Numbered from the stretch's first letter, positions 1,218-56,738 are shown. The stretch: DNA of 61,894 bases from a virus (IMGVR_UViG_3300025102_000024:1-61894); one strand, 5' to 3'. Translations and numbers: made by a program. The notes: generated from the sequence alone by a model not told the origin.

Positions 1218-2318
1218 CTATAGTTCTGCAGTTGCTGTATAACCAAATCCTGATGATTGACTATTAGAAGAAGATTGACGGAATCCGTTTGCAGTTGCTG
1301 CTAGTGCCGCTCCAGAACCTGATAAACCTATAAAAGCCATTGTTGGTGTTGTTCTCATTGCAACAGGAAATAACCAACTAGCAGTATTATTGTTATAGAC
1401 CATAAGTGTATCTGCAGGTACTGTTTGGAAATATCGTTGGCAACGTGCAAGTTCATCTCCGATACTGCGGTGCTCGAACGAGGTCGATACAGTACCAGTT
1501 TCAAATTGAACTCCTGTTAGGAAAATATCATTAGAAGTGCTATCAAAACAATTAACTTGTCCTACACTATTTCTAGCTCTATCAGCAACATCTCCCCAAT
1601 CTAACCATCCACCATCATCTGCCTGTGCAGTACCACTTGTATATGCACTACCTTGAGCAAAATACCAACTCATCCTCATACCTCTGGTATTGTCATTATC
1701 AAATCCGTCAGATGTAAATCCAGGAAAACTAAGAGTTACTTTTTGCCATGTATTAGCTGAACTAACAGTATATTTTCTAGAAATAAAAGCAGCACCACTA
1801 GTATTACTTAATTCATCACCATATAAACGAACCCAATGAATCCCTGCTTTTGGTGATTTAATCCAAAAACATAATGTAGTTGTTTCAGCACTCGAAGTTC
1901 CATATTTTAACCTTGTTAACTCTTGTCCTTCAAAACGATATTCAAGTTGAGTATATGTAGCAGCATTACTATCACCTCCAGCAGTCGTAACATCTAACTT
2001 TAAAGATTTAGCAAAACCTTGACCAGATGGAACATCTGTGCTTTGTGACATTGTTACGATTGAATAATTTGACTGAAATTGAAATCTATCAGGACCACCA
2101 AATCCTCCTCCAGCACCACCACTAGCATGACCTAAACCAGTAACCTGACCTCTTTGGGACACGTTCATGGCTCCGTTGATTATTAAATTACGATGAGAAA
2201 GTCCACCTCCCCCAGTCATTCCAGTTATTCTTGCAGTGCAAGTTCCATCTGATGCTGTTGTGATTGCATCACTCGTTGCACTATTGTGTCTGATTGCGTC
2301 TACTTTTAATGTGCTCAT
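1218..2318 (-). CDS. Tail fibre/adhesin-like protein, RNLIING...FEH...CQRY class
   Basis: N-terminal MSTLKVDAI; LSHRNLIINGAM and GVQFETG...FEHRS...LARCQRY shared with 4 paralogues in the window. Confidence 0.7.
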   Translation of the reverse strand: MSTLKVDAIRHNSATSDAITTASDGTCTARITGMTGGGGLSHRNLIINGAMNVSQRGQVTGLGHASGGAGGGFGGPDRFQFQSNYSIVTMSQSTDVPSGQGFAKSLKLDVTTAGGDSNAATYTQLEYRFEGQELTRLKYGTSSAETTTLCFWIKSPKAGIHWVRLYGDELSNTSGAAFISRKYTVSSANTWQKVTLSFPGFTSDGFDNDNTRGMRMSWYFAQGSAYTSGTAQADDGGWLDWGDVADRARNSVGQVNCFDSTSNDIFLTGVQFETGTVSTSFEHRSIGDELARCQRYFQTVPADTLMVYNNNTASWLFPVAMRTTPTMAFIGLSGSGAALAATANGFRQSSSNSQSSGFGYTATAEL

Positions 2319-2872
2319 ACTAGTGCCCTCACAAAATGACCTGAAAATTCATTAATAGAATATTGTTGTCCGTTTGCAATAGTTATACTTGAACCTGTTG
2401 TATGATATCCAAAAATTTCCACATAATCACTTGATCCATTAAATGATACTAAAGAAGATATGAATGCAGATCTACTGGCAGCAAAATTATGTCTAAAATC
2501 ACAATTAACATATCTTGATCCATTTTTTTTAATATCAATAGCATAAACATTATTTACATTTACATAGTATATACTTGCAGTAATATAATAATATCCAGCT
2601 AATTGAGGTGTAAACCTGTAATTAGTTGAATGATCATAATATCCGTGTGAGTCAAATACCTCCGCATCAAATTGAATTTTAGTTGATGTATTATTTGATA
2701 TTGATTGAGTGTTATTATTTCTTGCAAAAAATACTGGTTTATATGTGTCTGTCAAGACTGTTCCATCAGCATTACCTGGCACCTTTAAGGTGCGATTTGC
2801 CGCTGGATTACTGTCAGGTGTTGTGAGAGAGACACTATTGCCTCCCGAATGTACTAATTTTATGTTACTCAT
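2315..2872 (-). CDS. Fibre-like protein with C1q/TNF-like C-terminal domain
   Basis: PVFFAR...FD...FTPQLAGYYYITASI...DYVEIF pattern. Confidence 0.6.
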   Translation of the reverse strand: MSNIKLVHSGGNSVSLTTPDSNPAANRTLKVPGNADGTVLTDTYKPVFFARNNNTQSISNNTSTKIQFDAEVFDSHGYYDHSTNYRFTPQLAGYYYITASIYYVNVNNVYAIDIKKNGSRYVNCDFRHNFAASRSAFISSLVSFNGSSDYVEIFGYHTTGSSITIANGQQYSINEFSGHFVRALV

Positions 2873-3564
2873 TATGCCACTCCATACATAGAAAATCTAC
2901 CAGTTGCTATATTATTTTGATTCGTGTATTGTAACTCAAGACCAGTTACTTCTCTGGAATCAGTGATAGCTCCATGTATATATTGCCCTCTTAAAGCTCC
3001 ATCACTACTCATATATGCGTTATGACCATGATATCTTAGTCGTCTGTTATTTTCAAAACCATGCAAGTAAATTGTGCAGTTCCAGTCCTCTTTGACATAA
3101 CCACTTGCTTCTAAATTACCAACATTATTATAATTTAATCTAAATCTATTCAATACACCAAAGTGTTCGTCTGCACTTACACCAACAGTTCCAGAATAAT
3201 AATCAGAGTTAGAATATAACGAAGTTCCGTTAGAACCATATCTTATTCTCATTTCAAAATCCTCATTATCAGACACAGATCTAACTCCATCCATCACAAT
3301 CATATATGTTTTAAAATCGGTAAATGCATTAGTAACATTAGATTCAGTAAAAGTTACCGCAGAAGTATTTGATGTAACATTAACTGTTGCTAATGGAACT
3401 AATCCACTAACTCCTGATGTCTTAGCATATGTCACTGCAGAATTTGCAATCTTAGCATTCGTGACAGCATTTGATGCTAATGTAGTATCATTCACAACAC
3501 CAGAACCAAGACCCCCAACTGAGAGTCCTGTTATACTTCCATCTCCGTTAATAGTTACTGGCAT
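2872..3564 (-). CDS. Tail fibre/adhesin-like protein
   Basis: AVTNAKIA repeats; C-terminal domain ending GRFSMYG, similar to the 45578..47119 C-terminus (GVVKLYG). Confidence 0.6.
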   Translation of the reverse strand: MPVTINGDGSITGLSVGGLGSGVVNDTTLASNAVTNAKIANSAVTYAKTSGVSGLVPLATVNVTSNTSAVTFTESNVTNAFTDFKTYMIVMDGVRSVSDNEDFEMRIRYGSNGTSLYSNSDYYSGTVGVSADEHFGVLNRFRLNYNNVGNLEASGYVKEDWNCTIYLHGFENNRRLRYHGHNAYMSSDGALRGQYIHGAITDSREVTGLELQYTNQNNIATGRFSMYGVA

Positions 3565-3586
3565 AAGATTCTTTACTCCCTGATAT

Positions 3587-4159
3587 TTATACGATGGTCA
3601 AGAAACTACCTGACGGTACTGTGACTGTGACACCAGATTTAATTGCGACTGGACCTGCTGCCATCGCATTTTTACCTGAACTTATAGTATAACTCACATC
3701 AACCGAATTGTCATTCTCAAAGAACACAGTATTTGTTGATGCACCACCAACAGGTGCTCCTGCTGGTAAGTTTATTAATTGTGAACCATCACCAAAGTAT
3801 GTGACGATACCAGATCCTACAGGTCCGACTGTTCCACCTGTACCAATTCTTACTCCACTTCTTGCTGTTAATATTCCTATCGAATCTACATTCGTTACGT
3901 CTTCGTATGTTAATGTTCCTGCAATACCAACAGTTCCATTGAACTTGGCATCACTTACAAAAGTTATTTCCTGTGTCGCACGATCTACATGAAAAGTAGT
4001 TCCAGTCGTGGTGATACCAACAGTACCAATACCCGACTGCGTTCCATCTAAGTGAAGTAGTAACTCTCCATTAGAATTTGTTATTTTTATTTTTTCGTTG
4101 ACTGATGCACTAGTAGGATCTGACTTTGCCTCAATACCATGAATTCTAAGGGTACTCAT
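3587..4159 (-). CDS. Fibre adaptor-like protein
   Basis: MSTLRI N-motif, LTYEDVTNVDS linker, C-terminal GKNAMAAGPV...LTIV module. Confidence 0.65.
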   Translation of the reverse strand: MSTLRIHGIEAKSDPTSASVNEKIKITNSNGELLLHLDGTQSGIGTVGITTTGTTFHVDRATQEITFVSDAKFNGTVGIAGTLTYEDVTNVDSIGILTARSGVRIGTGGTVGPVGSGIVTYFGDGSQLINLPAGAPVGGASTNTVFFENDNSVDVSYTISSGKNAMAAGPVAIKSGVTVTVPSGSFLTIV

Positions 4160-4184
4160 TCTTTTAGTATATCCTTTTAGTTAT

Positions 4185-4682
4185 TTAGCCTGATACTTCA
4201 TAGATAATGAGTTGAGCTCCACCTCTCTCACCATCACCTACTGACTTGTTGACATTAAATGATGAACCGTTCGCACTTCCCCAAGGACCAGCAGCTAAAG
4301 TATATGTAATTTCTGATGATCCACCATTAACATCAACAACCATTTGATAATATCCACCCCATTGGTTATTATCATTTTTTGATTGATTATGCATCATGTA
4401 TCGACCTCCAGGATATGAATCTACTCCACCAATAGTCTTTTTTAAACCAACATACCAAGTGGAGTTGTTACCAGTATCTTCTCTTACTCTTAGTCTTATA
4501 TCTATTAAAATTTTACTGTCTGCTCTCACTGGAGTATATGTTGTACTCATGATATCTCCAGCTGCTGTTAAATCGAGAACTGTGTCAAGTTGTGCAACCT
4601 TCATTTGGATGATACCACCACAAGTTGAATTGGTTGATAGTCCATCTCTTGGAACGATTCGATTGGTTCTTAGTTCTGACAT
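4185..4682 (-). CDS. Short fibre-tip/adhesin-like protein (GGIIQ class)
   Basis: MSELRTNRI, GGIIQ, TP...SKILI, C-terminal YEVSG; paralogue of 4682..5188. Confidence 0.6.
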   Translation of the reverse strand: MSELRTNRIVPRDGLSTNSTCGGIIQMKVAQLDTVLDLTAAGDIMSTTYTPVRADSKILIDIRLRVREDTGNNSTWYVGLKKTIGGVDSYPGGRYMMHNQSKNDNNQWGGYYQMVVDVNGGSSEITYTLAAGPWGSANGSSFNVNKSVGDGERGGAQLIIYEVSG

Positions 4683-5188
4683 TATGCTGATACCTCCATA
4701 ACAGAAATTGAGGAAGACAAAGAATAATTTGTATCATCTGCTCTTCTATTAATACCTAACGCATAACTGCCACTTGTAGCTCTCGCCACTACTTTATAGG
4801 TATGAGAGCTAGTATCTCCTGGAGCATGTAAGATTTGAAGACCATGACCACTACTTAAATTTCCATCATCTTGTCTAACCATAGCGAAACCTCGTTCATT
4901 AGCACTAGCCCCTCCAGTTCCATTACCAATAAGAGTTGAATCAAAAAGTAATCTTAAAACTGCTGCATCTTCACAACTTGCAAATACATTAACTGTTACT
5001 AAAATTTTACTAGTAGAAAATTTAGGGGTTATATCAACACTTAAACCACTAACATCAACAAAACTAGTACTTGTTATTAATGTTTGATCTACTTTGGTAA
5101 CGCATTTAACTTGAACAATACCACCTCCACCACCAGTGGGAACACCACCAGTTGGAATTATTTTATCGACTCTTAATTCTGATGACAT
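4682..5188 (-). CDS. Short fibre-tip/adhesin-like protein (GGIVQ class)
   Basis: MSSELRVDKI, GGIVQV, ITP...SKILV, C-terminal MEVSA. Confidence 0.6.
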   Translation of the reverse strand: MSSELRVDKIIPTGGVPTGGGGGIVQVKCVTKVDQTLITSTSFVDVSGLSVDITPKFSTSKILVTVNVFASCEDAAVLRLLFDSTLIGNGTGGASANERGFAMVRQDDGNLSSGHGLQILHAPGDTSSHTYKVVARATSGSYALGINRRADDTNYSLSSSISVMEVSA

Positions 5189-5190
5189 AG

Positions 5191-5550
5191 TTATGAAGGT
5201 TCAGTTGGCCAGTTTACGGATGTTAAGTCTAATTCATAATCAGATCCTAACTTTGGTGTTTGTGTTGTAATATCACGAAGTGCTTGACGATATGTTCTCC
5301 ATGCAGTTGATAAGGTAACATCCTTACCTGCTCTCCAGTCTGTCAATGCAATTCTTCGATCTCTTTCAATACGCAATAATCTCATTGGTTCTGCTGCATC
5401 AAGTGAAGAAATCTTACTATTGATTTCTGTTTCTGTTGGTTTTGTCTGACTACTATCTAACCATTCAAGACCAGAGTAATCAGATCCACGAAGAGTCCAC
5501 TGTGCTCCTGGCTTTAATTCTTGTAGTGCTGCTGGAATGTCGTATTTCAT
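5191..5550 (-). CDS. Tail fibre assembly chaperone-like protein
   Basis: LRIERDRRIALTDW...WRTYRQALRDI...WP signature of phage tail assembly chaperones. Confidence 0.75.
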   Translation of the reverse strand: MKYDIPAALQELKPGAQWTLRGSDYSGLEWLDSSQTKPTETEINSKISSLDAAEPMRLLRIERDRRIALTDWRAGKDVTLSTAWRTYRQALRDITTQTPKLGSDYELDLTSVNWPTEPS

Positions 5551-5565
5551 AATGTTATTTATAAG

Positions 5566-6126
5566 TTAATTTACAATCTCATATGCAACCATTGTAACAG
5601 AATTAGATATTCCACCTACTGCATCATGAAATATGAAATTGTGACTACCACCACTTCCCCTTGCTCTTGCATATGCCATATATTTCATCACTGAACCAGC
5701 AGCTAATCCACCAGTATCAATTGCTTGACCAGAGTGTGGTCTATATGCTGGTGATCCACCAAAGAAAGCATCAACATAAGCTAGAATACTTGCAGTACCA
5801 CCATCTGCTGATCTATAGATTGATGTTACTCCTTGAACACCAGTACCATTAGCATCTTGAGCACCACCAGTGATAGTTGCAACACAATAACTTGTACCTG
5901 CAGTAGTGCCACCTGCTAATTTTCTAGTAAATTGTGCAAAGAGTCCAGTATTAACATCACCATCCGAAGTGGTAGAAAAATCAGTGCTAAGATGACCGTA
6001 TGCTGATGTTATTATTGTTCCTGATGGAGCATCAACCCAATTTCCACCCAAATTAATGTTACTTGGAATCACTAGTGTGCTTCCACTACTTGATATTTGT
6101 GTGCTTCCTAAATTTAATGTTCCCAT
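5566..6126 (-). CDS. Short fibre-tip/adhesin-like protein
   Basis: PSGTII motif, C-terminal YEI as in the GGIIQ class; followed by a chaperone gene. Confidence 0.55.
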   Translation of the reverse strand: MGTLNLGSTQISSSGSTLVIPSNINLGGNWVDAPSGTIITSAYGHLSTDFSTTSDGDVNTGLFAQFTRKLAGGTTAGTSYCVATITGGAQDANGTGVQGVTSIYRSADGGTASILAYVDAFFGGSPAYRPHSGQAIDTGGLAAGSVMKYMAYARARGSGGSHNFIFHDAVGGISNSVTMVAYEIVN

Positions 6127-6131
6127 TTTTT

Positions 6132-6647
6132 TTATACTGTTCTAGGTATATAATTAAAATTTATAACGATGCGTTCTTTTGTATCACTACTTGAAGAACC
6201 TGCATGTTTCAGATTTGTTGGAAAAGTTACTAATCTATTTTCCTTACTCTGAACTCTTGAACCATTCTCAAAGTATGTTCCACCATCATTATTATTAACA
6301 TAATATACAGATGTCATAGATTCTGACAAATTTTTAAAATCATTATGCATTGGGGTGACTCTCACACTATCAGTTTTCATTCTCAAATTTGCTTTTATTT
6401 TAATCCAAGCCACAGGATTAATCTGTTGCATTATAGGAGATATGATGGATGTTGAATTTGACACCATTCCTTTAGTTGGATTCCAAAAAACATGAACGAA
6501 TTGAAAGTCATCAGGATGATCATCTTTTCCAACACAAAAAGAATTATAGACCCAAGTGCAATCAACATAGAACCACGTTAATATTTCACTCCAGACACTA
6601 AAAGGTAAAAAATCATCAACGACTTTTACCCCAGAAGGTAAATTCAT
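6132..6647 (-). CDS. 2OG-Fe(II) oxygenase
   Basis: HxD (MHND), distal His (KHAG), R-x-V-I-N; YYVNNNDGGT. Confidence 0.85.
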   Translation of the reverse strand: MNLPSGVKVVDDFLPFSVWSEILTWFYVDCTWVYNSFCVGKDDHPDDFQFVHVFWNPTKGMVSNSTSIISPIMQQINPVAWIKIKANLRMKTDSVRVTPMHNDFKNLSESMTSVYYVNNNDGGTYFENGSRVQSKENRLVTFPTNLKHAGSSSSDTKERIVINFNYIPRTV

Positions 6648-6667
6648 TCTATTATTTATTATCTATA

Positions 6668-7252
6668 CTACACGATAACCCATGCACCGTCAAGTGTCAT
6701 AGTTGAACCTAATGTAACTGGTCCTGCATTCAATGCATTTCTTCCAGTTCCAATATAATAACCATTGATATTATCTAGTCTTGCGTTGAATACAAGTGAA
6801 CCATCACCAATGTAAATACCTCTAAATGAATTTGCAGCACCAACAGTTTCATAATTATCAACTGTGGTGGTTTGAATACCAAGATTCTTAACAGTTGTGA
6901 TACCTGCTGTGCCAAATTTAAATTCACTACCTGATGGAAGACCAGTCAGATCAGAACCATCACCAACAAACTTAGTCGCAGTCGCAACACCAGTGATTAC
7001 AACACCACTATTATTTGCCTGTGCCTTAACTGCTCCACTAAACTTAATTGCAGAAGCATCAATACCTGTTAAGTTTGCACCACTACCACTAAAAGAAGTC
7101 GCAGTAACAACACCAGTGAACTTACCATCACCACCGACATCCAAAGCAGATGAAGGAATTGTAGATCCGATACCCACATTCCCACCAGAATTCTGCGTGA
7201 CACCTCCAGTGCCAGATTGATGTTTCCAATTATTAAAACGGATGTCAGACAT
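6668..7252 (-). CDS. Fibre adaptor-like protein
   Basis: GNVGIG, TATSFSGSGANLT repeats, C-terminal GRNALNAGPV...WVIV module. Confidence 0.65.
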   Translation of the reverse strand: MSDIRFNNWKHQSGTGGVTQNSGGNVGIGSTIPSSALDVGGDGKFTGVVTATSFSGSGANLTGIDASAIKFSGAVKAQANNSGVVITGVATATKFVGDGSDLTGLPSGSEFKFGTAGITTVKNLGIQTTTVDNYETVGAANSFRGIYIGDGSLVFNARLDNINGYYIGTGRNALNAGPVTLGSTMTLDGAWVIV

Positions 7253-7270
7253 TATATATTTTTCTACTAT

Positions 7271-7576
7271 TTATGATGGTTTATCTGCAATCAACTTTGC
7301 TTTCCATGCATCTTTGACTGATGTAGTCCATACAGCATTGCATATTGCTTTGACTTCATCCGCAATATCTGTTGTACCATCTGGTTCTTTTGTTAATGGA
7401 TTATCAACAAGATTATCTGATGCATCTAAAGTGCCTGGATCAAGAACAAATCTATTAAAAGATCTTGTGAGTTCTACTCCATCTTTTTTGATGACTGTAG
7501 CTTTTCGGACCTGTACTGCTTTGTACTGTCCAACGACTTCTATTTTATCGTATTCTATTGATTCTGCAAGTGCCAT
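7271..7576 (-). CDS. Small partner/chaperone-like protein of the DDYEEG-class fibre
   Basis: MALAESIEYDKIEVVG...VQVR; directly downstream of 7628..8725; GGAGG RBS. Confidence 0.6.
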   Translation of the reverse strand: MALAESIEYDKIEVVGQYKAVQVRKATVIKKDGVELTRSFNRFVLDPGTLDASDNLVDNPLTKEPDGTTDIADEVKAICNAVWTTSVKDAWKAKLIADKPS

Positions 7577-7627
7577 TAGGGAAATCCTCCGAATTAAACT
7601 GGTTTAGGCATAATTATTTATGATGGG

Positions 7628-8725
7628 TTATGCGTCTGTCATATAAGTAATATTATATTCAACTAAAAAATCTTTATTATGAAAAGTTTTATTTGTAGCG
7701 TATGATATTAAAGCACCAGAGGCATCATGAGTAGCTCTGCTTATCCAGAATGAAAGATTTGAGCCACTCATACCTACAGCAATCTGACCTTGATTATAAT
7801 TGTATACATTATTATTAGTTCCATACCAGTCAGTAGTCTGCCAAGTAACTGACCCGTAAGCGTGTCTGTAACCTGATCCATTAGGTGCAAAAGGAACTCC
7901 TGATATTTTTAATATATCGGTTTGCGAAGTAAATAAAGGTTTTGTACCCCCACCTTGTAATAATCCAGCAAGATTAACTAATCTTCCAATTTTTGTATAT
8001 TTTCCTTGTGCTGCTGCATAAGCTGGAGTGTTAGACAAACCAACAAGATTTGGACCCCAATTTCCTTCTTCATAGTCGTCAAGAGCGTTGGCTGCTGCGG
8101 TGTCTCCGTTAAATGATATTCCTCCACCAGATTGAAACCTTACTTCCTCAGTATTATTGACTCCAAAAATTATTGGAGCATTTCCACTTTGCCAAACTTG
8201 TGCTGCGTTTGCTCCTCCTATCGCACCACTACTTGTTCCTAATTTATTAATTGAGAAATAACCACCACTTCCACTAGATTGCTGTAGTTTTACTGTTGCA
8301 AAAGATGTATTTGTTGAGTTTTGAACCAGCACAGTTGGTATTGCTGGTTTAGATACATTGAGATTCCCTGCACCTACTGCTAAATCACTACCATCAAAAG
8401 TTAAATTAGATTCACCATTTAAGTTAACACCACTTCCACCAGTTATAACTCTGTTGTCTGCATTGTTTGCTATGGTTGCTTGTGCTGGTAATGAAGTTAA
8501 GTTTGCACCACTAATTGCTGGAAGTGTACCAGTTAATTGTCCAGCAGGTATACTGGTTAAGTTTGCACCACTACCAGTTACAGCACCAGTTACATTACCA
8601 GTTACATTACCACTAAAACTATTTGCAGTAACAATACCAGAAACAATCGCACCAGTATCTGAGAAGGTTACTGTTGATAACCCACTTCGGTTTATTATTT
8701 TATTTACTCTAATTTCTGATGCCAT
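7628..8725 (-). CDS. Tail fibre protein (ALDDYEEG class)
   Basis: MASEIRVNKI, GNVT and GANLT repeats, NALDDYEEG...YTKIGRLV. Confidence 0.7.
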   Translation of the reverse strand: MASEIRVNKIINRSGLSTVTFSDTGAIVSGIVTANSFSGNVTGNVTGAVTGSGANLTSIPAGQLTGTLPAISGANLTSLPAQATIANNADNRVITGGSGVNLNGESNLTFDGSDLAVGAGNLNVSKPAIPTVLVQNSTNTSFATVKLQQSSGSGGYFSINKLGTSSGAIGGANAAQVWQSGNAPIIFGVNNTEEVRFQSGGGISFNGDTAAANALDDYEEGNWGPNLVGLSNTPAYAAAQGKYTKIGRLVNLAGLLQGGGTKPLFTSQTDILKISGVPFAPNGSGYRHAYGSVTWQTTDWYGTNNNVYNYNQGQIAVGMSGSNLSFWISRATHDASGALISYATNKTFHNKDFLVEYNITYMTDA

Positions 8726-9417
8726 TATCCTTTTATTTCCATTACTGTGATGTTAGAGATATATCTACCTCTCTTATTAGTATCACTATCACTATTAGAT
8801 CTATTCAAATGAATATATTGCTGACTGCCAGCATTATGATAAAAAGCATAATGAAACTTATGCTCGTTTGTATCTGCACATGAGATGTAAACGTGAATAG
8901 GTATGGTAAAAACTCCCTCAGTATTTCCACTATCACCACCAGAAAGAGATCGTCTTCTACTACTAGCTGCATCTCCAAGAGCTCCAGCTGTGGTAACAGC
9001 AGAATTATTATCATACAACATTGAATTAACAGCTAATCCATTTGAACCAATAACAACCTGCCCTGTTATTAAAAAGAAATTTGAAGCACTAGAAGCAGTG
9101 ATAGTAACTCTCAATAAATCATTATTAAAACTCCAAATAGCACCAGAATTAGTATTATCACTATATGCCGATGTTAATGTAGTATTTTTAACTTGAACAA
9201 TACCACCAGTAGGGACAGGTATATTTGTTAAGTTTGCACCACTACCACTGAATGAAGTTGCAGTACATACACCAGCAAATTGTGCGTGACCTTGATGAGA
9301 TATTGTTGCACCAATACCAGTCGTTCCAGTCAGAGGTCCCACGGTCAATCCAGTGGTAAGACCGACACGATCTCCACCATTCTCTCCAACTATACTTGTA
9401 ACTCTAATTTCTGACAT
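8725..9417 (-). CDS. Tail fibre/adhesin-like protein (GGIVQ class)
   Basis: MSEIRV, SGSGANLT, GGIVQV, C-terminal MEIKG. Confidence 0.65.
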   Translation of the reverse strand: MSEIRVTSIVGENGGDRVGLTTGLTVGPLTGTTGIGATISHQGHAQFAGVCTATSFSGSGANLTNIPVPTGGIVQVKNTTLTSAYSDNTNSGAIWSFNNDLLRVTITASSASNFFLITGQVVIGSNGLAVNSMLYDNNSAVTTAGALGDAASSRRRSLSGGDSGNTEGVFTIPIHVYISCADTNEHKFHYAFYHNAGSQQYIHLNRSNSDSDTNKRGRYISNITVMEIKG

Positions 9418-9424
9418 ACTTTAT

Positions 9425-10624: not shown

Positions 10625-10628
10625 TTAA

Positions 10629-11641: not shown

Positions 11642-11663
11642 TTTAAATATTCTCCTCCACTAT

Positions 11664-12113: not shown

Positions 12114-12133
12114 CAGGTTTTTAGTTATTTATC

Positions 12134-12679: not shown

Positions 12680-12682
12680 AAA

Positions 12683-14161: not shown

Positions 14162-14172
14162 ATCTTTATTTA

Positions 14173-45530: not shown

Positions 45531-45577
45531 TTTTTTATATTTTTAGTTATTTATAGACGAATGTAATTAATATTTAG

Positions 45578-47119: not shown

Positions 47120-47135
47120 ATTACTTTTTAATTAT

Positions 47136-50100: not shown

Positions 50101-50285
50101 GCAGCTACTAAATTTGTTCTTTTTACCCATAATGAAATAGTAAAAGTTTTTCTATTACCAGCACTACTAGGTGTTCTATCTAGATAAGCTGTATCAGCAC
50201 GATTAAATCTTAAACTATTCTTTATTACTGATCCACCTAATACACTATCATCAGTTATGATATGTGGTATGAATGCTCTTCCCAT
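47136..50285 (-). CDS. Large lectin-like virion protein (two LamG/ConA-like domains plus SPRY-like domain)
   Basis: FTISLWVKR...WYHIV...YVNG; F.GYMDELRIS; SGKWYWEV; F.PDLVW.K.R and GF.PAFIM.K repeats. Confidence 0.75.
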   Translation of the reverse strand: MGRAFIPHIITDDSVLGGSVIKNSLRFNRADTAYLDRTPSSAGNRKTFTISLWVKRTNLVAARLIACHSGNSDAGNFELDFINDAFRCIGWGTSFKVTNRLFRDTSAWYHIVTAVDTTDSTADNRIKIYVNGVQETSFSTSNNPSQNFDTGFNQASTTRIGLAANSISGPFDGYMAEINFVDGLQLTPSSFGYTDFQTGIWRPKKYEGSYNTNGFHLEFKSTSTDGSYTVPTASFTTDSDTALLINNNESNGSTTFTDSSSNGYSVSGTGGISHSTAQSKFGTSSIIFDGSDDSLTVGGNGTLYSELTASSNKTYEGWIWITARDYSWMFSSSSNQQYLGVNIQPAANGSYIAFGGNQPSPYTAIQGNAGGGGKSGSSGDSPSQSWPLNQWIHMFVQRNADGTMMVGADGQVLYRASEGANNTNSGTVGPLKIGSQHYYGSTHRNFFEGYMDELRISNTPRYSASYSGTVGDDTSGQGNTFAPNNFTSSDVLSDVPTNNFPTLNPLEGNGRRSGDLSNGNLDLSGGNYKLQKVNVRFGPDGIQSGKWYWEVNNSGGTYALYSGITSDFDQGGGEIAGQTNKTNFGSHYHKLFNQTGGASRTNEGAGVMSFLLDVDNRILIGKYKNVTIFTDTSIPNASTTTYAPFIFSTSGDWMNAQINFGQIPFTYTQPAGYKKISSNNIPVGATPSIIRPQKHFGTVLWTGNSSSSNRKISGLEFKPDLVWTKTRNYGYHHVWMDSVRGPSKRLNSDQNFVENNTNGGYLASFDEGGFTWQYGGGSSNEWWNQSYNYLAWCWKAGGAAVTNNDGTITTSVSVNEEAGFSIVSYSGTGSAGTIGHGLGKVPKCIITKRRTGTEDWKVYHSEIDGGKFLKLNATQAQTTNSDVYPNTAPTSSVYSLGNHASVNGSGDTYIAYCWTEIPGYSKFGSYEGNQNADGIYVHLGFKPAFIMMKNADNASNRHWCIVDSTRTTFNKSASAEVLFSDDAQVESYANNDFGQFGSKPCIDILSDGFKVREGETSASTQTNRSNTHIYMAFADQSGSTAYQTETNAE

Positions 50286-50294
50286 TATCTAACC

Positions 50295-50942
50295 TCAACT
50301 AAAGTTTACTGACGCACCTGCAAGTAGTGTCGTTCCTGCCGCTCCTGTCTTATGAACTGTGAATGATATTAAACTGAGAGAACCACTTGCTGTTGGTAAG
50401 TTTGGTGTTCCACCTGAAGGGAATTGGAATGCTGTACTGAATCCAACTGTTGCAACACCAACATTTTCAATTCTGATTTGATGACTATCTGCTTCCGTTC
50501 CACCTGTAACATCTATCGTAACGGTTCCTGTTGCTAATACTTTATGATCGTCTGCACTTGATAATAATAAATGAGTTGTAATGCCTGATGGAGTGATTGC
50601 TTCTGTTTGAATACCAACTGATATACCTGTTAGTGCTGAACCATCTCCTACAAAAGAAGTTGCAGTACATATACCAGTCACACGGAGACCATCTCTAAAT
50701 GTACCAACTCCTAAAGAATCAACATTGGTTACATCTTCATATGTTAATACACCAGCAACACCAAGATTACCAGAGAAAGTACCAGTAGTTGCAGTTAATC
50801 CATTTGGAAAATCTGCTGCACCACCAGATTGACCACTAAAATCTGTTGCAGTACAAACTCCAGTTACTTCCAAACCATTAGTCGCAGTTGGAGCACCGTT
50901 TGCAGTCTTATTCGTTATTGTATTTGCCCTTAATCTTGACAT
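50295..50942 (-). CDS. Tail fibre-like protein
   Basis: MSRLRANTI, LTYEDV; C-terminal FPSGGTP.L...D/L.ISF domain. Confidence 0.65.
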   Translation of the reverse strand: MSRLRANTITNKTANGAPTATNGLEVTGVCTATDFSGQSGGAADFPNGLTATTGTFSGNLGVAGVLTYEDVTNVDSLGVGTFRDGLRVTGICTATSFVGDGSALTGISVGIQTEAITPSGITTHLLLSSADDHKVLATGTVTIDVTGGTEADSHQIRIENVGVATVGFSTAFQFPSGGTPNLPTASGSLSLISFTVHKTGAAGTTLLAGASVNFS

Positions 50943-50961
50943 GGTATATCTTTTTAGTTAT

Positions 50962-52695
50962 TTATGAAGGAGTTCCTATTGCAGTAATAGAAATTATTGG
51001 TCTTCTGAATACATTAATAGCACCAGACGAACCATAGTTTCTTAATAAGTTAATTGCAAACTCATAAGAAGAATTATACTCACTCATTTGAAGTTTAATA
51101 ACTTTGCCACTAGTCCAACTAGCTAATCTACCCACTGAATAATCTGTACTACCACCTATATTAAATACCCATTTAAAAGTATTAAGTTGATCAAAGTAAT
51201 TTGTACCACCCCTTTGTCCAAATCTAGAATGTGTAATTTCCTGACCATCCCATAATAATCTTGCACCTAATATTGCATTACTATCTGTATCAGAAGCAAT
51301 GGCATATTGAAACTCGTAAATAACTTGTACTGCTCCATCTGGGGGTTGATATGTGATTACTGATCCTTGAGCATCATTTAGAGCTGTAGTTAATGCTTGC
51401 CAGTCGGTTGGGTTCTGTACTGTAACCGTACCCTTACTTGTAGTAAAACTTGAACCATCAGCAGGACTAGAGAATTGTTCTAAAACTTGTAGTCCACCTC
51501 CCCCCTTCCAAGATACAGCACCAGATGCACCACCACTTGTTAACACCTGACCTGATGTTCCATAGTTTGCACCAGCAATTCCTAATTGACCTGCACTTCC
51601 AATGCGAAGTCTTTCTGTTCCATTTCCTGTAGTTGCATTTGCAGCAGTATAGAATTTATGTGTATTTACTGCATATGCCCAACCTGTATATCCTCCATAA
51701 TTAATCTCATGACCAGAAGATCCAGATACTCCATATAATTGAGTAACCATCTTTGAAGGATCTGCATAAGTTGGCATCATTATGCGATATTGATTCTCTG
51801 TATTAGCATTTCTGTTTTGTCCATTCTGACCACCACTTGCACCAAGGGTTAGTGTTCCTAGATCTGTTGCACCTTGAGATTGAAGATCCAGACCACCAGC
51901 AGCAGCCCTCACTGTTGAATTTGTTCCTAATGCTCCATTTGATGTGATGCGAACTCTCTCACTACCACCAGTTTCTGCTGTAATTGTATCAGCAGCAGGG
52001 AATCTTATTGCAGTGTTAGTATCTCCAGAGTGAATTATTTTATCAGCAATTGATAAATCTGATCTTGCTGTTATAACACCAACTGAATCTATATTCGTTA
52101 CGTCTTCATATGTTAATGTACCACCAATATTTAAATTACCAGTGAATGTTCCAGCAGTTCCCGTTAAACCATTTGGAAAGTTTGGTGCTCCGTTTGCATT
52201 CTTATTTGTAATACTATCAACACGAATACGACCACTACCACCTGCACCAAGTCCTCCACCATCTGTACCAAGACCTAGAATATCAGGTATTACGTCATCT
52301 CCATCTTCAATTATTAAATCTGCTCCTTCTTCTAATCTTATATCTGCGTATTGTGTATATGCACCTGTTGATGTTGCTGGATGATCAACTGTAACTGTTG
52401 CACCAATACTTAATACTTCATTTGTAAAATATAATTTATTTAACGGACTTGTCTGTGTCGAACTTAATGCTGTTCCAAGTCCAGCAGGAAGATTTGTAAG
52501 ATTAGATCCATCACCAAAAAATGAGGTGGCAGTTATAATACCAGAGGTGTTAACACTTGAATTACCAAATGCAGTATTAATACCTGATAGATTTGCGCCA
52601 CTACCACTAAAACTTGACGCAGTAACGATTCCTGATAGGTTTAGATTACCATCAGAATTACCTACTATTTTATCGGTTGCTCTTGTTAGTGCCAT
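50962..52695 (-). CDS. Tail fibre protein
   Basis: Internal RIRVDSI/ANGAPNFP, LTYEDV, IRFPAADT, ERLRIGSAGQ. Confidence 0.7.
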   Translation of the reverse strand: MALTRATDKIVGNSDGNLNLSGIVTASSFSGSGANLSGINTAFGNSSVNTSGIITATSFFGDGSNLTNLPAGLGTALSSTQTSPLNKLYFTNEVLSIGATVTVDHPATSTGAYTQYADIRLEEGADLIIEDGDDVIPDILGLGTDGGGLGAGGSGRIRVDSITNKNANGAPNFPNGLTGTAGTFTGNLNIGGTLTYEDVTNIDSVGVITARSDLSIADKIIHSGDTNTAIRFPAADTITAETGGSERVRITSNGALGTNSTVRAAAGGLDLQSQGATDLGTLTLGASGGQNGQNRNANTENQYRIMMPTYADPSKMVTQLYGVSGSSGHEINYGGYTGWAYAVNTHKFYTAANATTGNGTERLRIGSAGQLGIAGANYGTSGQVLTSGGASGAVSWKGGGGLQVLEQFSSPADGSSFTTSKGTVTVQNPTDWQALTTALNDAQGSVITYQPPDGAVQVIYEFQYAIASDTDSNAILGARLLWDGQEITHSRFGQRGGTNYFDQLNTFKWVFNIGGSTDYSVGRLASWTSGKVIKLQMSEYNSSYEFAINLLRNYGSSGAINVFRRPIISITAIGTPS

Positions 52696-52703
52696 TTAGT
52701 TAT

Positions 52704-52871
52704 TTAGTCGGCTGCCTCTGCAGTGTTGCCAGCAGACACCCAAGAAAGGTATTCCTGATAATGCCTATTTGCATCATCAATTGGTATGAGTAAAACATTT
52801 CCATTTGAGTCAGTATGTTTTATGGAACATAAGTTTCCTCTCTCATAATCATTTACTAATTTATAAGTCAT
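52704..52871 (-). CDS. 55-aa chaperone-like partner of a CQRY-class fibre (not in ORF track)
   Basis: MTYKLV...IPIDDANRHYQEYLSWVSAGNTAEAAD; paralogue of 16249..16434. Confidence 0.8.
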   Translation of the reverse strand: MTYKLVNDYERGNLCSIKHTDSNGNVLLIPIDDANRHYQEYLSWVSAGNTAEAAD

Positions 52872-52873
52872 AG

Positions 52874-54169
52874 TTAAAGCTCCGCATCGAAATTTAGTTG
52901 GGCACTATCTTGTGAGAAAATTCTTCCAGAAGCACCCGCTGAGAAAGCATCACCACTGCTTCTAGAAAACCACATGTGACCAACTACCTGATTATACTCT
53001 CTACTATGCGACATATTATTACCTGCCAGAGTTATATCTGCACTACCTGATACACCAGCTCTTGCTTCTAACTGATCACCTGAAACACTTATGGTGGGAG
53101 TTGTTCTTAAATCTACCTTCCAATTTGGCATGACTTCAATGACGGTAGAACTATTTCCATTGATAGACATACCTAACATAGATCTATAAGAATATGCACT
53201 AGCAAAAACTTGGTAATATCTCTGACAGGCACGAAACTCATCTGCTAAATGTTTTTGCTCAAACGGAGTGGCTACAGATCCACGCTCTAATTGAACATTT
53301 GCAAAATCAACTGTAAATGCAGCAGTTGATGTATCACCTGCTGGTTGTCTGAATAATTCTATTTCATAAAAACTTGTATGTTTATTACCTGATACTGTTT
53401 TACCAGAGATACTTGGTGGTGTAAAAGTAAATGTTTTCTTTGTCCAAGTATTAGATGCAGTATAATTTGCAATACTTGTATCAACTACAGAAGAACCACC
53501 AGATCCAAAGTCTTGTCTGAATGTAAGATTGAATTGTCCACCACCAGGATTTGATCCTTTTACCCAGAAAGAAAGAGTCATCTCACCTTGACATCTTGTT
53601 ACATCTTCTACTCTCTGTCTCAAAGCAACATTATTATTACCAGTTGAGACATAGTATTTTAAATAATAAAATGGATTATCGGGGACATCAGTTTGGCCAG
53701 GAGAAAATGTTTGTCTAGTAACTCGTTTTGTAGCACCAGAAGATGCATGAAACCAACGATCACAACTTAAATATCCATCAGTAGTATTAGTACCACTATC
53801 AGTGGCTCTCTGCCAAACTAAAAATTGACCATTTATTATAAGATTACGATGAGAAAGTGGTGTATCTGAAACAAATGCAGTTGCAGTTATAATACCTGTG
53901 GTATTCACACTTGTGCCAGATCCAAAAGATGTATCAATACCAGTTAAGTTTGCACCACTGATTGCTGGTAATGTTCCAGTTAAGTTTGCTGCTGGTAATG
54001 AAGTTAAGTTTGCACCACTTCCAGTGAAACTTACTGCAGTTACTATACCCGTGGATTCTAAATTGTGACCCTTTAAATTTTTAGTTCCTAATTCAATATC
54101 AGAAGTAAAAGTTACAGAACTAATACCAGAATCGGATTCTATATTATTAACTACTATCTTACTTGTCAT
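52874..54169 (-). CDS. Tail fibre protein (CQRY class; start moved to 54169)
   Basis: LSHRNLIING, VQLERG.VATPFE...CQRY; ATGA overlap. Confidence 0.7.
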   Translation of the reverse strand: MTSKIVVNNIESDSGISSVTFTSDIELGTKNLKGHNLESTGIVTAVSFTGSGANLTSLPAANLTGTLPAISGANLTGIDTSFGSGTSVNTTGIITATAFVSDTPLSHRNLIINGQFLVWQRATDSGTNTTDGYLSCDRWFHASSGATKRVTRQTFSPGQTDVPDNPFYYLKYYVSTGNNNVALRQRVEDVTRCQGEMTLSFWVKGSNPGGGQFNLTFRQDFGSGGSSVVDTSIANYTASNTWTKKTFTFTPPSISGKTVSGNKHTSFYEIELFRQPAGDTSTAAFTVDFANVQLERGSVATPFEQKHLADEFRACQRYYQVFASAYSYRSMLGMSINGNSSTVIEVMPNWKVDLRTTPTISVSGDQLEARAGVSGSADITLAGNNMSHSREYNQVVGHMWFSRSSGDAFSAGASGRIFSQDSAQLNFDAEL

Positions 54170-54411
54170 ACGATCCTCCAATTACCTTGAACTGTGACAG
54201 AATGCCCTGCACCCACTTTGACAGTGCCAACAGTGAGTCCGTTTGTTCCTGATGGGATAATAACATTTTCATTAATTTCTGTACTGTTTGCTTTGATAAT
54301 TCCAAAACGATCTAACCATTGCTTCTTTCCATTTGCAGTAATTGTTTTATGAAAAGTGACAGAGTTTACACCAACTTTAGATTCAATTGTATTGACAATA
54401 ATCTTGGTCAT
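54166..54411 (-). CDS. Minimal adaptor-like protein (start moved to 54411)
   Basis: MTKIIVNTI plus GTNGLTVGTV...WRIV; paralogue of 54408..54644. Confidence 0.65.
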   Translation of the reverse strand: MTKIIVNTIESKVGVNSVTFHKTITANGKKQWLDRFGIIKANSTEINENVIIPSGTNGLTVGTVKVGAGHSVTVQGNWRIV

Positions 54412-54644
54412 ACAATTGCCCACTCACCATTAACTGTAATCGTATGTCCATCTGCAATGGTTATCGGACCTGATGAAAGACCATTCGTTCCATTTGGAAT
54501 AGTTATATCTTCAGCAATCGTATCACGATTTGCCTTAATGACACCAAATGTATCTAACCATTGATTGTCACCATTTGCTGTAATTGCCTTCTTAAATTCA
54601 GTGGCAACTGCAGAATCTATAATGTTAGCTTTAAGTGTTGACAT
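54408..54644 (-). CDS. Minimal adaptor-like protein
   Basis: MSTLKANII plus GTNGLSSGPI...WAIV. Confidence 0.65.
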   Translation of the reverse strand: MSTLKANIIDSAVATEFKKAITANGDNQWLDTFGVIKANRDTIAEDITIPNGTNGLSSGPITIADGHTITVNGEWAIV

Positions 54645-54651
54645 ATTTTAT

Positions 54652-55437
54652 TTATATTATCAATTTAAAAGCAGAGAAGTAGTTTCCTCTATATCCATTT
54701 GCATCATTACTAAAATAACCTTGTGAATTACCATTAGTGTCAAGCCATCCAAAAAGTTCAATATAATCTCCAGCAGCTAAACTCAACACTCCACCCAAAT
54801 TAACTTGAAAATGTCTTGTTCCAGCAGCATAACTGCTTATAAAACCATACTGAGTAATTTTTGTAGCACCATTCTGTTGTATTCTTGCTATTATTCCTCT
54901 TATATCATTCAGATTAGCATAAAAATTTAATCCTGCATTAACCTGATAGAATCCACCCTTTCCAGATGGAACTGTAAATCTATTCGCAGTGGTTCCAGAG
55001 GTAGAGTTATCATAAGCACTGTCTGTGTCAAAAGTTTCAGAGTTTAAAAACTCAACTTTAGTAAATGTTGCATCGGCTATTGAGTGACTCGTAACATTAT
55101 TACTCCAAGCATGAAATGCTGGTGTATTTGTTGGTGTCTTTGAGAAAGTAGTTGCTTCATATGATGTTGCAGTTATAATTCCAGTAGTATTAATTGAAGG
55201 GTTGCCACTTAAACCTGTTGCATCTCCTGTGACATTACCAGTGACATTACCAGTGACATTACCAGTAACATTACCAGTAACATTACCAGTAACAGCACCT
55301 TCAATCGGACCTACAAAACTACCAGCAGTGACTGAATTACCAACAGAAATATTATTTGTGACACTCGCAATTCCAGCAATGGTTATTGTAGAACCACCAC
55401 CGACTGGATTAATTTTATTGACGTTTAGTATACTCAT
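54652..55437 (-). CDS. Tail fibre protein with C1q-like tip
   Basis: GNVT repeats; PAF...FDT...FTVP...G.Y....GDYIELF. Confidence 0.7.
   Translation of the reverse strand: MSILNVNKINPVGGGSTITIAGIASVTNNISVGNSVTAGSFVGPIEGAVTGNVTGNVTGNVTGNVTGNVTGDATGLSGNPSINTTGIITATSYEATTFSKTPTNTPAFHAWSNNVTSHSIADATFTKVEFLNSETFDTDSAYDNSTSGTTANRFTVPSGKGGFYQVNAGLNFYANLNDIRGIIARIQQNGATKITQYGFISSYAAGTRHFQVNLGGVLSLAAGDYIELFGWLDTNGNSQGYFSNDANGYRGNYFSAFKLII
55229..55288. repeat. 12-bp tandem repeat x5 encoding GNVT
   Basis: GTGACATTACCA x3 then GTAACATTACCA x2. Confidence 0.95.
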
Positions 55438-55445
55438 TTTTTTTA

Positions 55446-56738
55446 TTATGTAAAGGTAACTGTTTGAGATGAGTCTGAGGTTGCAGTAATCGTTAAAATT
55501 GTATCACTTCCAACTGATGCAGAAGAAGATGTAACTCCACCAGTAACTGTAGCAGTATAATCTGATGAAAATCTGAGTATGATAACACCTGCACTACCAT
55601 TACCACCAGCAGAAGCACCACTAGCACCACCTCCAGCACTACCTCTGTTAGCGATTTGTGCGTCTTGGTCTCTAGCACCAGCACCAGCACCTCCACCTAC
55701 CGTAAGGTTTCCACTTTCGTAGTTTCCTCCACCACCTCCACCAGCGTATGCCACTGTTGAACCTGTGATTGTATTATTCAGTGAAGAACCACCATCTCCA
55801 TTAGTCCCACCAGAACCACCAACAACTCCAGCAGCACCAGCACCACCACCTCCACCACCACATTGAGGGGTATTTCCAGCACCATTTCCACCATTATATC
55901 CATAAGTTCCACTAGCACCAGCTTGACCAGTTTGGTTTCCACCACCACCACCACCACCTGATCCACCGCCAGGATCTGCACTTGGGTTTCCATCATCAGC
56001 AGACGTTCCTGTGGTTGCATAAGCACCACCTCCACCACCACCTTTGGATACTATATCATCAAACGTAGTTGTTCCACCATCATTACCTTTCCAAGGTGTT
56101 GCATTAACTCCAGCACCAGCAGCTCCAATGATAACTGAAAATGCAGATCCAATACTAATTGTTTTTGCAGATGCAGATGATGTTCCTCCACCCTGAGATT
56201 CATTATTCCAGTTTGTTCGTAGTGCTCCTGCACCACCACCTCCTCCACGGAAGTTACCACCACCAGCACCGCCTCCACCGACGACAAGATAATTTATAGC
56301 AAAGTTTCCTGATTTAGTATTGATAACATTCCATGCACTCCCAGTATATACCTGTAATGCATTAAAATTTGAATTAAAAATTATAGTTCCTGTTGCTGTT
56401 GAAACACCAGCATTTCTTCCTGCAGTCGTTGTAGTACCAACACCAACTGCATGTTTACTAATTTTTGTCGTACCATCTGTAATTTCTAAGGAACCAACAG
56501 TTGCGATACCAGTAACACGAAGTCCATCTCTTGCAGTTATAACTCCGACTGAATCTATATTCGTTACGTCTTCATATGTTAATGTACCACCAACACCAAG
56601 ATTTCCTCCTATTGTTAAATTTCCACTTGTAGTTAAATTACTATCTCCAATCAAACTCACTGTGCCACTAGCAGTTCCAATAGCAACATTAGTGCCACTC
56701 GATGGTAATATTGTATCTACTCGAAGATTACTAGCCAT
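55446..56738 (-). CDS. Fibre protein with glycine-rich adhesin-like domain
   Basis: MASNLRVDTI, LTYEDV, YLVVGGGG.GG...GGGGAG...G.AGVIILR. Confidence 0.72.
   Translation of the reverse strand: MASNLRVDTILPSSGTNVAIGTASGTVSLIGDSNLTTSGNLTIGGNLGVGGTLTYEDVTNIDSVGVITARDGLRVTGIATVGSLEITDGTTKISKHAVGVGTTTTAGRNAGVSTATGTIIFNSNFNALQVYTGSAWNVINTKSGNFAINYLVVGGGGAGGGNFRGGGGGAGALRTNWNNESQGGGTSSASAKTISIGSAFSVIIGAAGAGVNATPWKGNDGGTTTFDDIVSKGGGGGGAYATTGTSADDGNPSADPGGGSGGGGGGGNQTGQAGASGTYGYNGGNGAGNTPQCGGGGGGAGAAGVVGGSGGTNGDGGSSLNNTITGSTVAYAGGGGGGNYESGNLTVGGGAGAGARDQDAQIANRGSAGGGASGASAGGNGSAGVIILRFSSDYTATVTGGVTSSSASVGSDTILTITATSDSSQTVTFT

Follow-up and report, generated by a model that had tools for sequence, protein, structure and literature searches.

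The tail-fibre genes of the viral record IMGVR_UViG_3300025102_000024 raise the question of why short boxes of their DNA have stayed identical while the sequence around them has diverged. The record comprises 61,894 bases, the whole of which was analysed and is called the window here, and it is estimated to be about 30% complete. Twenty-three fibre-like genes, all on the minus strand, formed one connected component in blastp, and many of them matched PHROG tail-fibre families. They are arranged in two arrays which lie on the same strand, 23.2 kb apart. Fibre array 1 (1218..21402, minus strand) holds 15 of the 23 paralogs, as delimited by open reading frames (ORFs), the blastp component and the PHROG tail-fibre families, and fibre array 2 (44616..56738, minus strand) holds 8 fibre or structural genes, a DUF7483 protein included. 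An initial annotation had regarded the boxes as crossover or gene-conversion handles by which tip domains are swapped. This interpretation was partly supported by sequence comparison, being upheld in substance but overstated in detail: homologous recombination together with short-tract gene conversion at conserved adaptor motifs is the probable explanation of the boxes.

Identity of the boxes at synonymous sites

The most prominent box is a 46-nt repeat, which on the coding strand encodes GGTLTYEDVTNIDSV and is called the YEDV box here. All its copies are on the minus strand. The exact string was found at 45334..45379 in gene 44616-45530, at 52082..52127 in gene 50962-52695 and at 56548..56593 in gene 55446-56738; there was no further match at up to 3 mismatches, and shuffles expect 0.00. 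Two other copies, 46467..46512 in gene 45578-47119 and 13917..13962 in the array-1 gene 12683-14161, share 41/46 nt with the exact ones, and the former keeps the first 23 nt of the repeat unchanged. Diverged copies were found at 3879..3924 (gene 3587-4159, 39/46 nt against the exact copies), 50713..50758 (gene 50295-50942, 37/46 nt) and 12010..12055 (gene 11664-12113, 35/46 nt). The three exact copies are identical to each other over 46-52 nt and the remaining pairs share 30-42/46 nt. All repeats listed in the initial annotation were recovered at their coordinates, and the YEDV motif, with eight copies in the window, occurred additionally at 12013-12041, which was absent from that list. The repeats were all direct, as had been stated: self-blastn of the window gave 69 high-scoring segment pairs (HSPs), 69 of them direct and 0 inverted.

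Codon usage of the window was derived from 59 ORFs, in which GAC represents 17% of the aspartate codons and ACG 5% of the threonine codons. The YEDV box uses GAC in 7 of its 8 copies and ACG in 5 of the 6 copies with threonine. The same motif was found in at least 131 IMG/VR stretches outside the window. With the amino acids given, the chance that three copies agree over all 15 codons is P=2.7e-10 under the codon usage of the window, and P=1.2e-7 under position-specific codon frequencies taken from the 131 listed foreign copies. In codon alignments of the exact-copy gene pairs the box formed a run of 14-16 consecutive identical codons (permutation p between 0 and 0.002). Flanking codons were worked through for one pair, 44616-45530 with 50962-52695. 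All 16 of its 16 box codons were identical, and outside the box 16 of 42 identical residues shared a codon (expected about 47%), which is at or below the random level and represents saturation. Synonymous divergence is far lower inside the YEDV box than outside it, so the refuting condition set by the initial annotation, a box dS no lower than codon bias and protein conservation predict, does not hold for this box. The conclusion that the main boxes are more alike in nucleotides than protein conservation and codon bias would produce, between flanks saturated at synonymous sites, is supported.

Long runs of identical codons were also found in other motifs. Over its whole length the pair 45578-47119 and 50962-52695 is not saturated: 121 of its 182 sites have the same codon, where 83.9 would be expected. 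Its long runs fall in ANGAPNFPNGLTGTAGT (17 codons) and in ERLRIGSAGQ..GQVLTS (94%, 83 nt). The corresponding ANGAPNFPNGLTGTAGT block at 46563..46653 (minus strand) is 87% identical to 52145-52235 over 91 nt, and the ERLRIGSAGQ.GIAGANYGTSGQVLTS block at 46115..46197 (minus strand), which pairs with 51535-51617, is situated just before the divergent C-terminal tips. The string AAGTTTGCACCACT codes for SGANL within the SFSGSGANLTG motif and has 8 exact sites (7071, 8499, 8559, 9230, 11454, 17693, 53946 and 54006); the SFSGSGANLTG box of gene 44616-45530 is at 45198..45251 (minus strand). Blocks common to both arrays were found as well. The block at 13802..13980 (minus strand) contains 13814-13980, 84% identical to 45231-45397 over 167 nt; the SGANLT/LPAISGANLTG block at 11447..11548 (minus strand) is 88% identical to 53939-54040 over 102 nt, and 8483-8512 matches 53990-54019 exactly over 30 nt.

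The shorter boxes belong to a tip domain named SHRN-CQRY after its motifs. At its start, CGATGAGAAAGT (2191, 10491, 13692 and 53847) codes for LSHR, with the codons CTT TCT CAT CGN in 4 of 4 copies, and it lies in the GIITATA..GQLSHRN junction box at 13653..13760 (minus strand), which has paralogous copies at 2152-2202, 10450-10552 and 53808-53912. About 15 residues before CQRY, TGCTCGAACG (1471, 9810 and 12951) codes for PFEH, with CTGCGGTGCTCGAACG at 1465 and 12945. The surrounding TGVQLEVG..ATPFEHR..CQRY box at 12909..12999 (minus strand; copies at 1429-1517, 9768-9858 and 16778-16866) showed no significant nucleotide excess. Some 70-100 homologous residues follow CQRY, so the FEH/CQRY box is positioned inside the tip, and the proposal that TGCTCGAACG marks the end of the domain was not upheld. 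Pairwise run tests on the SHRN-CQRY domain pairs gave no significant runs (p=0.04 to 0.71), and the 10-12-nt boxes CGATGAGAAAGT and TGCTCGAACG are for this reason individually weak. The claim of synonymous conservation between diverged flanks therefore holds for the main boxes (for the YEDV box P about 1e-7 to 3e-10, with saturated flanks) and is weak for these short ones.

The codon choice of the YEDV box was not general in the same motif elsewhere. Among the 131 listed IMG/VR stretches GAC was present in 20/131 and ACG in 7/130, and the 131 copies represented 124 distinct 45-mers, none of them seen more than 2 times. Five complete cultured cyanomyovirus genomes possess 1-3 strict motif copies each, and where there are multiple copies these differ at synonymous sites. 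The exact 32-nt core of the box matched 11 metagenome contigs and had 0 matches in IMG/VR, from which records very close to the window may be missing. Synonymous identity of the box was 0.67 within the window as compared with 0.553 between contigs. An exception is the GANLT box, in which AAC (22% usage) was observed in 10 of the 12 copies of the window and 10 of the 13 foreign ones. Since the foreign and cultured copies show ordinary codon choice and no such identity, the signal points to lineage-specific homogenisation rather than to a general nucleotide constraint.

Homology breakpoints in related genomes

Related contigs, designated here by L numbers, were compared with the fibre arrays. 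L152, a 1.7-kb metagenome contig, is 99.2% identical to 45554-45196 (359 nt) and follows gene 44616-45530 base for base up to the end of the SFSGSGANLTG box, which is itself 100% identical. Beyond the box about 1 kb is unrelated, and homology resumes at the stop codon of 44616-45530, with 95.5% identity over 132 nt. The replacement tip has no homolog in the window (best E=0.41), and the replacement also codes for a 115-aa tail assembly chaperone (PF16778, E=2e-18). The alignment indicates that L152 is a tip-plus-chaperone cassette swap which starts at a box.

A junction between the arrays was observed in L259, a 94.9-kb IMG/VR contig in which the neighbouring genes and gene order are as in the window. 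The gene at the position of 45578-47119 has its first ~190 codons mostly 80-100% identical (30-nt windows). From the YEDV box 46467..46512 on, it is 80-97% identical to the array-1 gene 12683-14161, and this array-1-like part runs through GNDLNVGSNIK..GIITATAFVPTTGQLSHRN into a SHRN-type tip. L259 is thus best described as a cross-array chimera, in which an array-2 N-terminus appears joined to array-1 sequence at the YEDV box. The suggested exchange across the two arrays finds its support in this chimera; the exact copies occur in array 2 only, and identity between the arrays reaches just 84-88%.

L155 is a positional ortholog of the region around 12683-14161. Codon identity at identical residues was 267/365 and 97/127 in the two upstream genes, 60/76 in the N-terminal shaft of 12683-14161 and 21/32 in the GIITATA..SHRN box. 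It was 26/50 in the tip body, a random level which goes with 28% amino-acid identity, and 15/25 in the TGVQLE..CQRY box. From these values, a distant allele appears to have taken the place of the tip body behind the SHRN box, with the 3' edge lying beyond the part of L155 that was compared. Over the 32-nt core, the YEDV box of L155 has the sequence of the three exact window copies and is 3/32 nt off its positional ortholog 13917-13962; with a flank divergence of about 17%, point mutation could also account for this match. In L154 an N-terminus like 55446-56738 (83%) is followed after the box by sequence like 50962-52695 (82%), and the homology to 55446-56738 ends at the box 56548..56593. L153 has the opposite arrangement, 50962-like before the box and 55446-like after it, with likeness of only ~50 nt per side. 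Together with the two window genes, L153 and L154 represent all four flank combinations around one box.

Within the window, gene 44616-45530 is itself incongruent. Its upstream flank is nearest to paralog 50295-50942 (81% over 77 nt), its box to 50962-52695 and 55446-56738 (100%), and its downstream flank to 12683-14161 (84% over 96 nt, within the 167-nt block). The gene of the DUF7483 structural protein (47136-50285, minus strand; 1049 aa, domain C-terminal) appears to be mosaic too, because its DNA likeness to the nearest relatives, L140 and L141, is mainly limited to 49625-50213 (595 nt). The 1049-aa protein as anchor gave 8 loci, with neighbouring fibre genes that had no nucleotide likeness, and gene 12683-14161 as query gave 4 distant loci only.

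Breakpoints were counted from 32 HSPs that had a length of 200 nt or more, an identity of 80% or more and no fewer than 120 nt lying outside boxes; the HSP of L152 falls below this last limit and was left out. A homology end was taken as intragenic (n=14) when it fell in a fibre gene and its distance to the nearest gene boundary exceeded 20 nt. Eight of these 14 are situated within 11 nt of a strict box, although strict boxes cover 17.6% of the eligible positions (binomial p=0.001); with repeat families added to the box set, 12 of 14 ends fall at 26.9% of the sites (p=7.5e-6). When ends were grouped in 9 site clusters, strict boxes accounted for 4/9 (p=0.057) and the extended set for 7/9 (p=0.002). 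Homology of L165, L228, L258 and L272 ends at 46440, beside the YEDV box 46467..46512, and that of L249, L250 and L259 at 46549-46573, at the ANGAPNFPNGLTGTAGT block. In array 1, the conserved block of L155, L190 and L176 ends at 13881-14008, around the YEDV box 13917..13962, and that of L176, L190 and L281 at 16234-16251, at a repeated element (16240..16307, minus strand; 82% identical to 52695-52762) which forms the 3' end of a 61-aa ORF. Further ends were found at gene starts or stops (44607, 47119, 47133 and 54656). Of the 79 IMG/VR relatives of 44616-45530, 78 have matches that stop by residue 197, the exception being L259. By hand tally their match ends cluster at residues 74-92 (12 loci), 110-120 (22), 124-131 (17) and 147-153 (15), and the end of the SGSGANLTG box, at residue 111-112, is within the second cluster. 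Mapping of related genomes thus placed junctions at boxes, as had been anticipated, both in individual contigs (L152, L155 and L259) and in the enrichment of 8/14. Short contigs from four other sequencing runs were also compared with 43800-57200. The summed depth of box bins was far above that of most tip bins and contigs stopped at boxes, both of which are expected for repeats in an assembly graph, and the depth includes other organisms as well. The sides of contig joints (e.g. 46458 to 56551) were only 30-32 nt long, and the tip bin 44694-45140 had zero depth in one set, which is no finding in itself; no conclusion was drawn from this comparison.

Probable recombination and competing explanations

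In the explanation which we regard as probable, the boxes would encode short and strongly conserved motifs, of the shaft or of adaptors, which recur across the 23-gene family, namely GGTLTYEDVTNIDSV, SFSGSGANLTG, ANGAPNFPNGLTGTAGT, ERLRIGSAGQ..GQVLTS and GIITATA..LSHRN. Recombination would act there because these are the only stretches alike enough in DNA, and it may take place between paralogs of one genome as well as between co-infecting relatives. Short-tract gene conversion would hold subsets of copies identical at synonymous sites, and a crossover or longer conversion tract starting from a box would put a different shaft, tip or tip-plus-chaperone cassette behind an N-terminus. The 3' boundary of exchange would tend toward the gene end or the start region of the next gene. 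The lineage-specific identity over saturated flanks is the footprint of conversion, and the relatives show exchange junctions at boxes, with tips and a chaperone moved as units. For a subset of copies, paralogs were more alike than copies between genomes and their flanks were saturated, as expected for interlocus gene conversion. A simple crossover between paralogs on one molecule would, with direct repeats, delete the intervening DNA, which makes non-crossover conversion or exchange between co-replicating genomes plausible. T4-like phages depend on recombination, and the enzymes would presumably be T4-type recombination proteins. The exchange events may be frequent on ecological time scales.

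Several observations weigh against this explanation. Exact YEDV identity is confined to 3 of the 8 copies, all in array 2, and no recombination genes were found in the 30%-complete fragment. Among 62 HSPs between boxes of different genes, 38 had protein homology on both sides, taken as detectable homology at least 25 residues past the box; 16 had it on the C-terminal side only, 3 on the N-terminal side only and 5 on neither. Most boxes are therefore not strict module junctions but sit inside weak homology, and the initial placement of boxes at module junctions holds in part only. The test by site clusters fell short of significance for the strict boxes. BLAST homology ends are biased toward the last conserved stretch, the metagenome relatives L148-L158 were selected for carrying the box, and the relatives are all assembled contigs which may be chimeric at repeats. 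Homogenisation is also weak as a general trait: ten other multi-copy contigs had within-contig box identities of 0.40-0.80 against 0.553 between contigs, and their pooled value of 149/238 = 0.63 is driven by one contig. Finally, codon identity rises with the length of the conserved run not only within the window, from 0.477 to 0.723 (observed/expected 1.62), but also in comparisons of the window with 82 distant loci, where it goes from 0.456 to 0.598 (observed/expected 1.27). As the length effect extends to distant phages, part of the signal possibly reflects mixed divergence times or position-specific codon preference. On these ratios the codon-identity signal would be in part general, with an extra part specific to the window genome.

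The identity of the boxes may be a selected handle or a by-product of gene conversion, and the data fit either. A stronger form of the former, which we consider doubtful, holds that the two arrays are a standing library of modules, with boxes kept by conversion, high-frequency reshuffling of shafts, tips and chaperones, and identity selected for evolvability. If it were true, new fibre combinations would arise within ordinary infections, in a manner that parallels antigenic-variation cassettes or diversity-generating retroelements but works by recombination.

It is improbable that plain protein conservation and codon bias suffice, the boxes being merely the most constrained residues. Compared between genomes, the boxes agree at ~72-87%, about the level that identical residues and codon bias would produce, the short SHRN and FEH/CQRY boxes fail the run tests as given above, and CCG at the proline of PFEH is common in foreign copies too (4/8). 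For the three identical YEDV copies, however, this account is refuted by their rare codons (P 1e-7 or less), by the normal codon choice of the listed foreign copies and by the saturation of synonymous sites outside the box. Equally improbable in our estimate is that whole fibre genes were duplicated recently and that positive selection then drove their flanks apart quickly, without later exchange. The family is indeed expanded, as 62 kb hold 8 strict motif copies where a cultured genome has 1-3, and the pair 45578-47119 and 50962-52695 is unsaturated over its length. Duplication does not explain why exact-copy pairs are at random level in the flanks (16/42) yet 16/16 in the box, why neighbouring segments of 44616-45530 have different nearest paralogs, or why the same box stands between different flanks in relatives.

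We give very little credence to an artefact, in which mis-assembly of metagenomes at repeats would have produced the identity or the mosaic relatives. The window, like every relative, is an assembled contig, and short contigs from other runs stop at boxes (45228, 46109, 56574 and 53894), as an assembly graph does at repeats. In L156:1644-2046 the YEDV box region is present twice in opposite orientation near the contig end, probably a fold-back assembly artefact. The 32-nt core is found, on the other hand, in 11 independent metagenome contigs, and 98% of the sampled words of the stretch were recovered in two sequencing runs, which may be its source. The right junction of L152 is at unique sequence without a repeat, L259 belongs to a long contig which keeps the gene order of the window, and the same boundaries recur in several contigs. 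A function of the box DNA or RNA itself (RNA structure, binding of a regulator, or pausing at rare codons to let the fibre fold) is just as hard to credit: rare GAC and ACG are kept in most window copies and the AAC of the GANLT box is common at window and foreign loci alike, but four box copies fold differently and no more stably than shuffles (z = -0.07, -0.14, +0.10 and -1.62), the rare codons are not kept in the 131 listed foreign copies or the 5 cultured genomes, and no Rfam family was found within the arrays.

Genomic setting and known systems

In array 1 the fibre genes are interleaved with chaperone-like and 2OG-Fe(II) oxygenase genes. A tail assembly chaperone (PF16778) at 5191..5550 (minus strand) is 50% identical to the chaperone of the L152 replacement cassette. 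Three 2OG-Fe(II) oxygenase paralogs were identified on the minus strand (6132-6647, 12134-12679 and 27830-28360), two of them among array-1 fibre genes; the label DNA endonuclease V that PHROGs gives to two array-1 oxygenases looks like a mislabel. The gene 18571-21402 (minus strand), coding for a 943-aa fibre protein, contains an internal tandem duplication, 20318-20610 and 20771-21063, of 293 nt and 83% identity. A 12-nt periodic repeat coding for (GNVT)n is present at 55209-55319 (minus strand) in gene 54652-55437, with a shorter run at 8557-8631, and Synechococcus phage S-PRM1 matches the former with 92% over 50 nt. No solved structure was found to be related by sequence to 44616-45530 (best E=0.55).

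Two small ORFs on the minus strand, 16249-16434 (61 aa) and 52704-52871 (55 aa), are each located directly downstream of a SHRN-CQRY-type fibre gene. They have a common C-terminus, Y..YL.WV.AGN..EAAD, with DNA 82% identical over 68 nt, and may represent a tip-associated helper gene. At the gene starts, a box at 45481..45554 (minus strand) is 81% identical to 50893-50965. A promoter-like site, TATAAATA, is present at 45555 and 56762 (minus strand), in each case 24-25 nt before the gene start (44616-45530 and 55446-56738, respectively), and we take it to be the T4 late-promoter consensus. The left edge of the L152 homology, at 45554, abuts the site at 45555.

Nearly all ORFs of the window are on the minus strand. 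The photosystem genes psbA and psbD are located at 22946-25195, with a PhotoRC-II RNA (25205-25302, minus strand; Rfam, 64 bits) directly upstream of the photosystem gene 24083-25195. An adjoining ORF of 807 aa (25394-27817, minus strand) belongs to no Pfam or PHROG family. At 29082-29814 (minus strand) 4-5 small tandem genes, presumably of the high-light-inducible (hli) type, have the common ending ..NGR.AM.G...G.Y.TTGQ.IPG.F and explain three ~107-nt direct repeats at 29185-29713. A transaldolase ORF is also present, the start region of which is overlapped by a manA RNA match (58556-58742, minus strand; Rfam, 187 bits). Between the two fibre arrays lies a 13-kb sugar cluster (29926-43174, minus strand) with glycosyltransferase families 25, 15, 11 (three genes) and 2, two epimerase/dehydratases, a UDP-glucose dehydrogenase, an NAD synthase and a mannose-6-phosphate isomerase. 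Nucleotide matches of the window among cultured phages were to Prochlorococcus and Synechococcus myoviruses only. No close cultured relative emerged when 13 kb were compared with the phage collection by megablast (9 records, each with at most 2% coverage, box-sized or weak), and a distant blastn of 2.5 kb matched 29 records, the listed matches being at or beside boxes. On the strength of psbA/psbD, the hli-type genes, the PhotoRC-II and manA RNAs, transaldolase, the sugar cluster and these cyanomyovirus-only matches, the window is identified as a fragment of a T4-like cyanomyovirus.

Recombination at conserved fibre motifs is already established for T-even and other phages, and the window is a new example of it. 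Tetart et al. (1998) reportedly described recombination at conserved motifs, the His boxes, in the T-even tail-fibre genes g37/g38. Trojet et al. (2011) likewise reported recombination at conserved motifs in T-even fibre genes, in which such motifs alternate with hypervariable adhesin segments (PMC3157838), in a T4-like phage as here. The lineage of the window has this trait, as motif-flanked variable segments with junctions at motifs in L152, L155 and L259, as seen by comparison of assembled contigs. It differs in its motifs (YEDV, SGSGANLTG and GQVLTS), having no His box, no gp38 and no glycine-rich architecture, and neither Pfam nor PHROGs placed any of the 31 fibre-array proteins in a gp37/gp38 family. 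It also has 23 paralogs in two arrays, with motifs common within one genome and a subset homogenised to exact identity. The analogy drawn by the initial annotation to His-box exchange is thus one of function, in that recombination occurs at motifs, and does not extend to membership of the family, since the His box, gp38 and the glycine-rich motifs are lacking.

A closer parallel in a cyanomyophage was provided by Enav et al. (2018), who found 15 synonymous changes within 120 bp of ORF108 in laboratory-evolved S-TIM4 (PMC6224464). The changes match other regions of the phage's own genome and were read by the authors as recombination (PMC6224464). Both cases concern a structural or fibre-like gene of a cyanomyovirus and ectopic conversion between repeats; S-TIM4 involves one gene under laboratory passage, with no link in the available text to tip swapping or to a multi-gene set of boxes (PMC6224464). 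Mosaic, paralogous fibre genes have been described in P-SSM2 and P-SSM4 by Sullivan et al. (2005) (PMC1079782). Zaragoza-Solas et al. (2020) described the host recognition cluster as a hypervariable island of pelagimyophages and cyanomyophages (PMC7029224), which like the window combines tail-fibre genes with glycosyltransferases and varies between relatives. Long reads from natural populations have revealed short structural variants in fibre genes of such cyanomyophage islands (PMC12379486). The available portions of these two papers describe the island and its variants and not nucleotide-identical exchange boxes (PMC7029224, PMC12379486). VrlC and the neck gene gp14, which flank the cluster, were not found in the 30%-complete fragment.

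In phages of the P2, Mu and P1 type, a tail-fibre tip and its cognate assembly chaperone are said to be exchanged as a cassette (Haggard-Ljungquist et al. 1992). The tip and downstream chaperone of L152 likewise appear to travel as one replaceable unit; the window differs in that it has no invertible segment or invertase, its repeats are all direct and many of its fibre genes have no adjoining chaperone. Invertible segments of the Gin, Cin or shufflon type were rejected, as 0 of 69 self-HSPs were inverted and the scanned proteins included no member of a recombinase family. A diversity-generating retroelement was rejected too: no reverse transcriptase was found among 60 Pfam-scanned proteins (smaller ORFs being outside the scan), and in the one repeat pair checked, the 293-nt duplication, the mismatch spectrum had no adenine bias. 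In the literature covered, which left out most subscription journals, no description of these boxes or of concerted evolution in cyanophage fibres was found. The strings YEDVTN, TYEDV and LTYEDVT were not found in a phage context either, with subscription journals and supplements outside the coverage.

The boxes break or mis-join metagenome assemblies, and caution is needed where fibre genes are reconstructed from them. They would mark the sites at which a fibre gene tolerates cutting and rejoining, and swapping of fibre parts is a familiar phage route to altered host recognition. Exchange at a few adaptor motifs, with tips and chaperones moving as cassettes, may aid the reading of host-range evolution in abundant ocean phages, and it would provide a concrete, testable mechanism for the diversification of the hypervariable host-recognition island in marine cyanomyoviruses.

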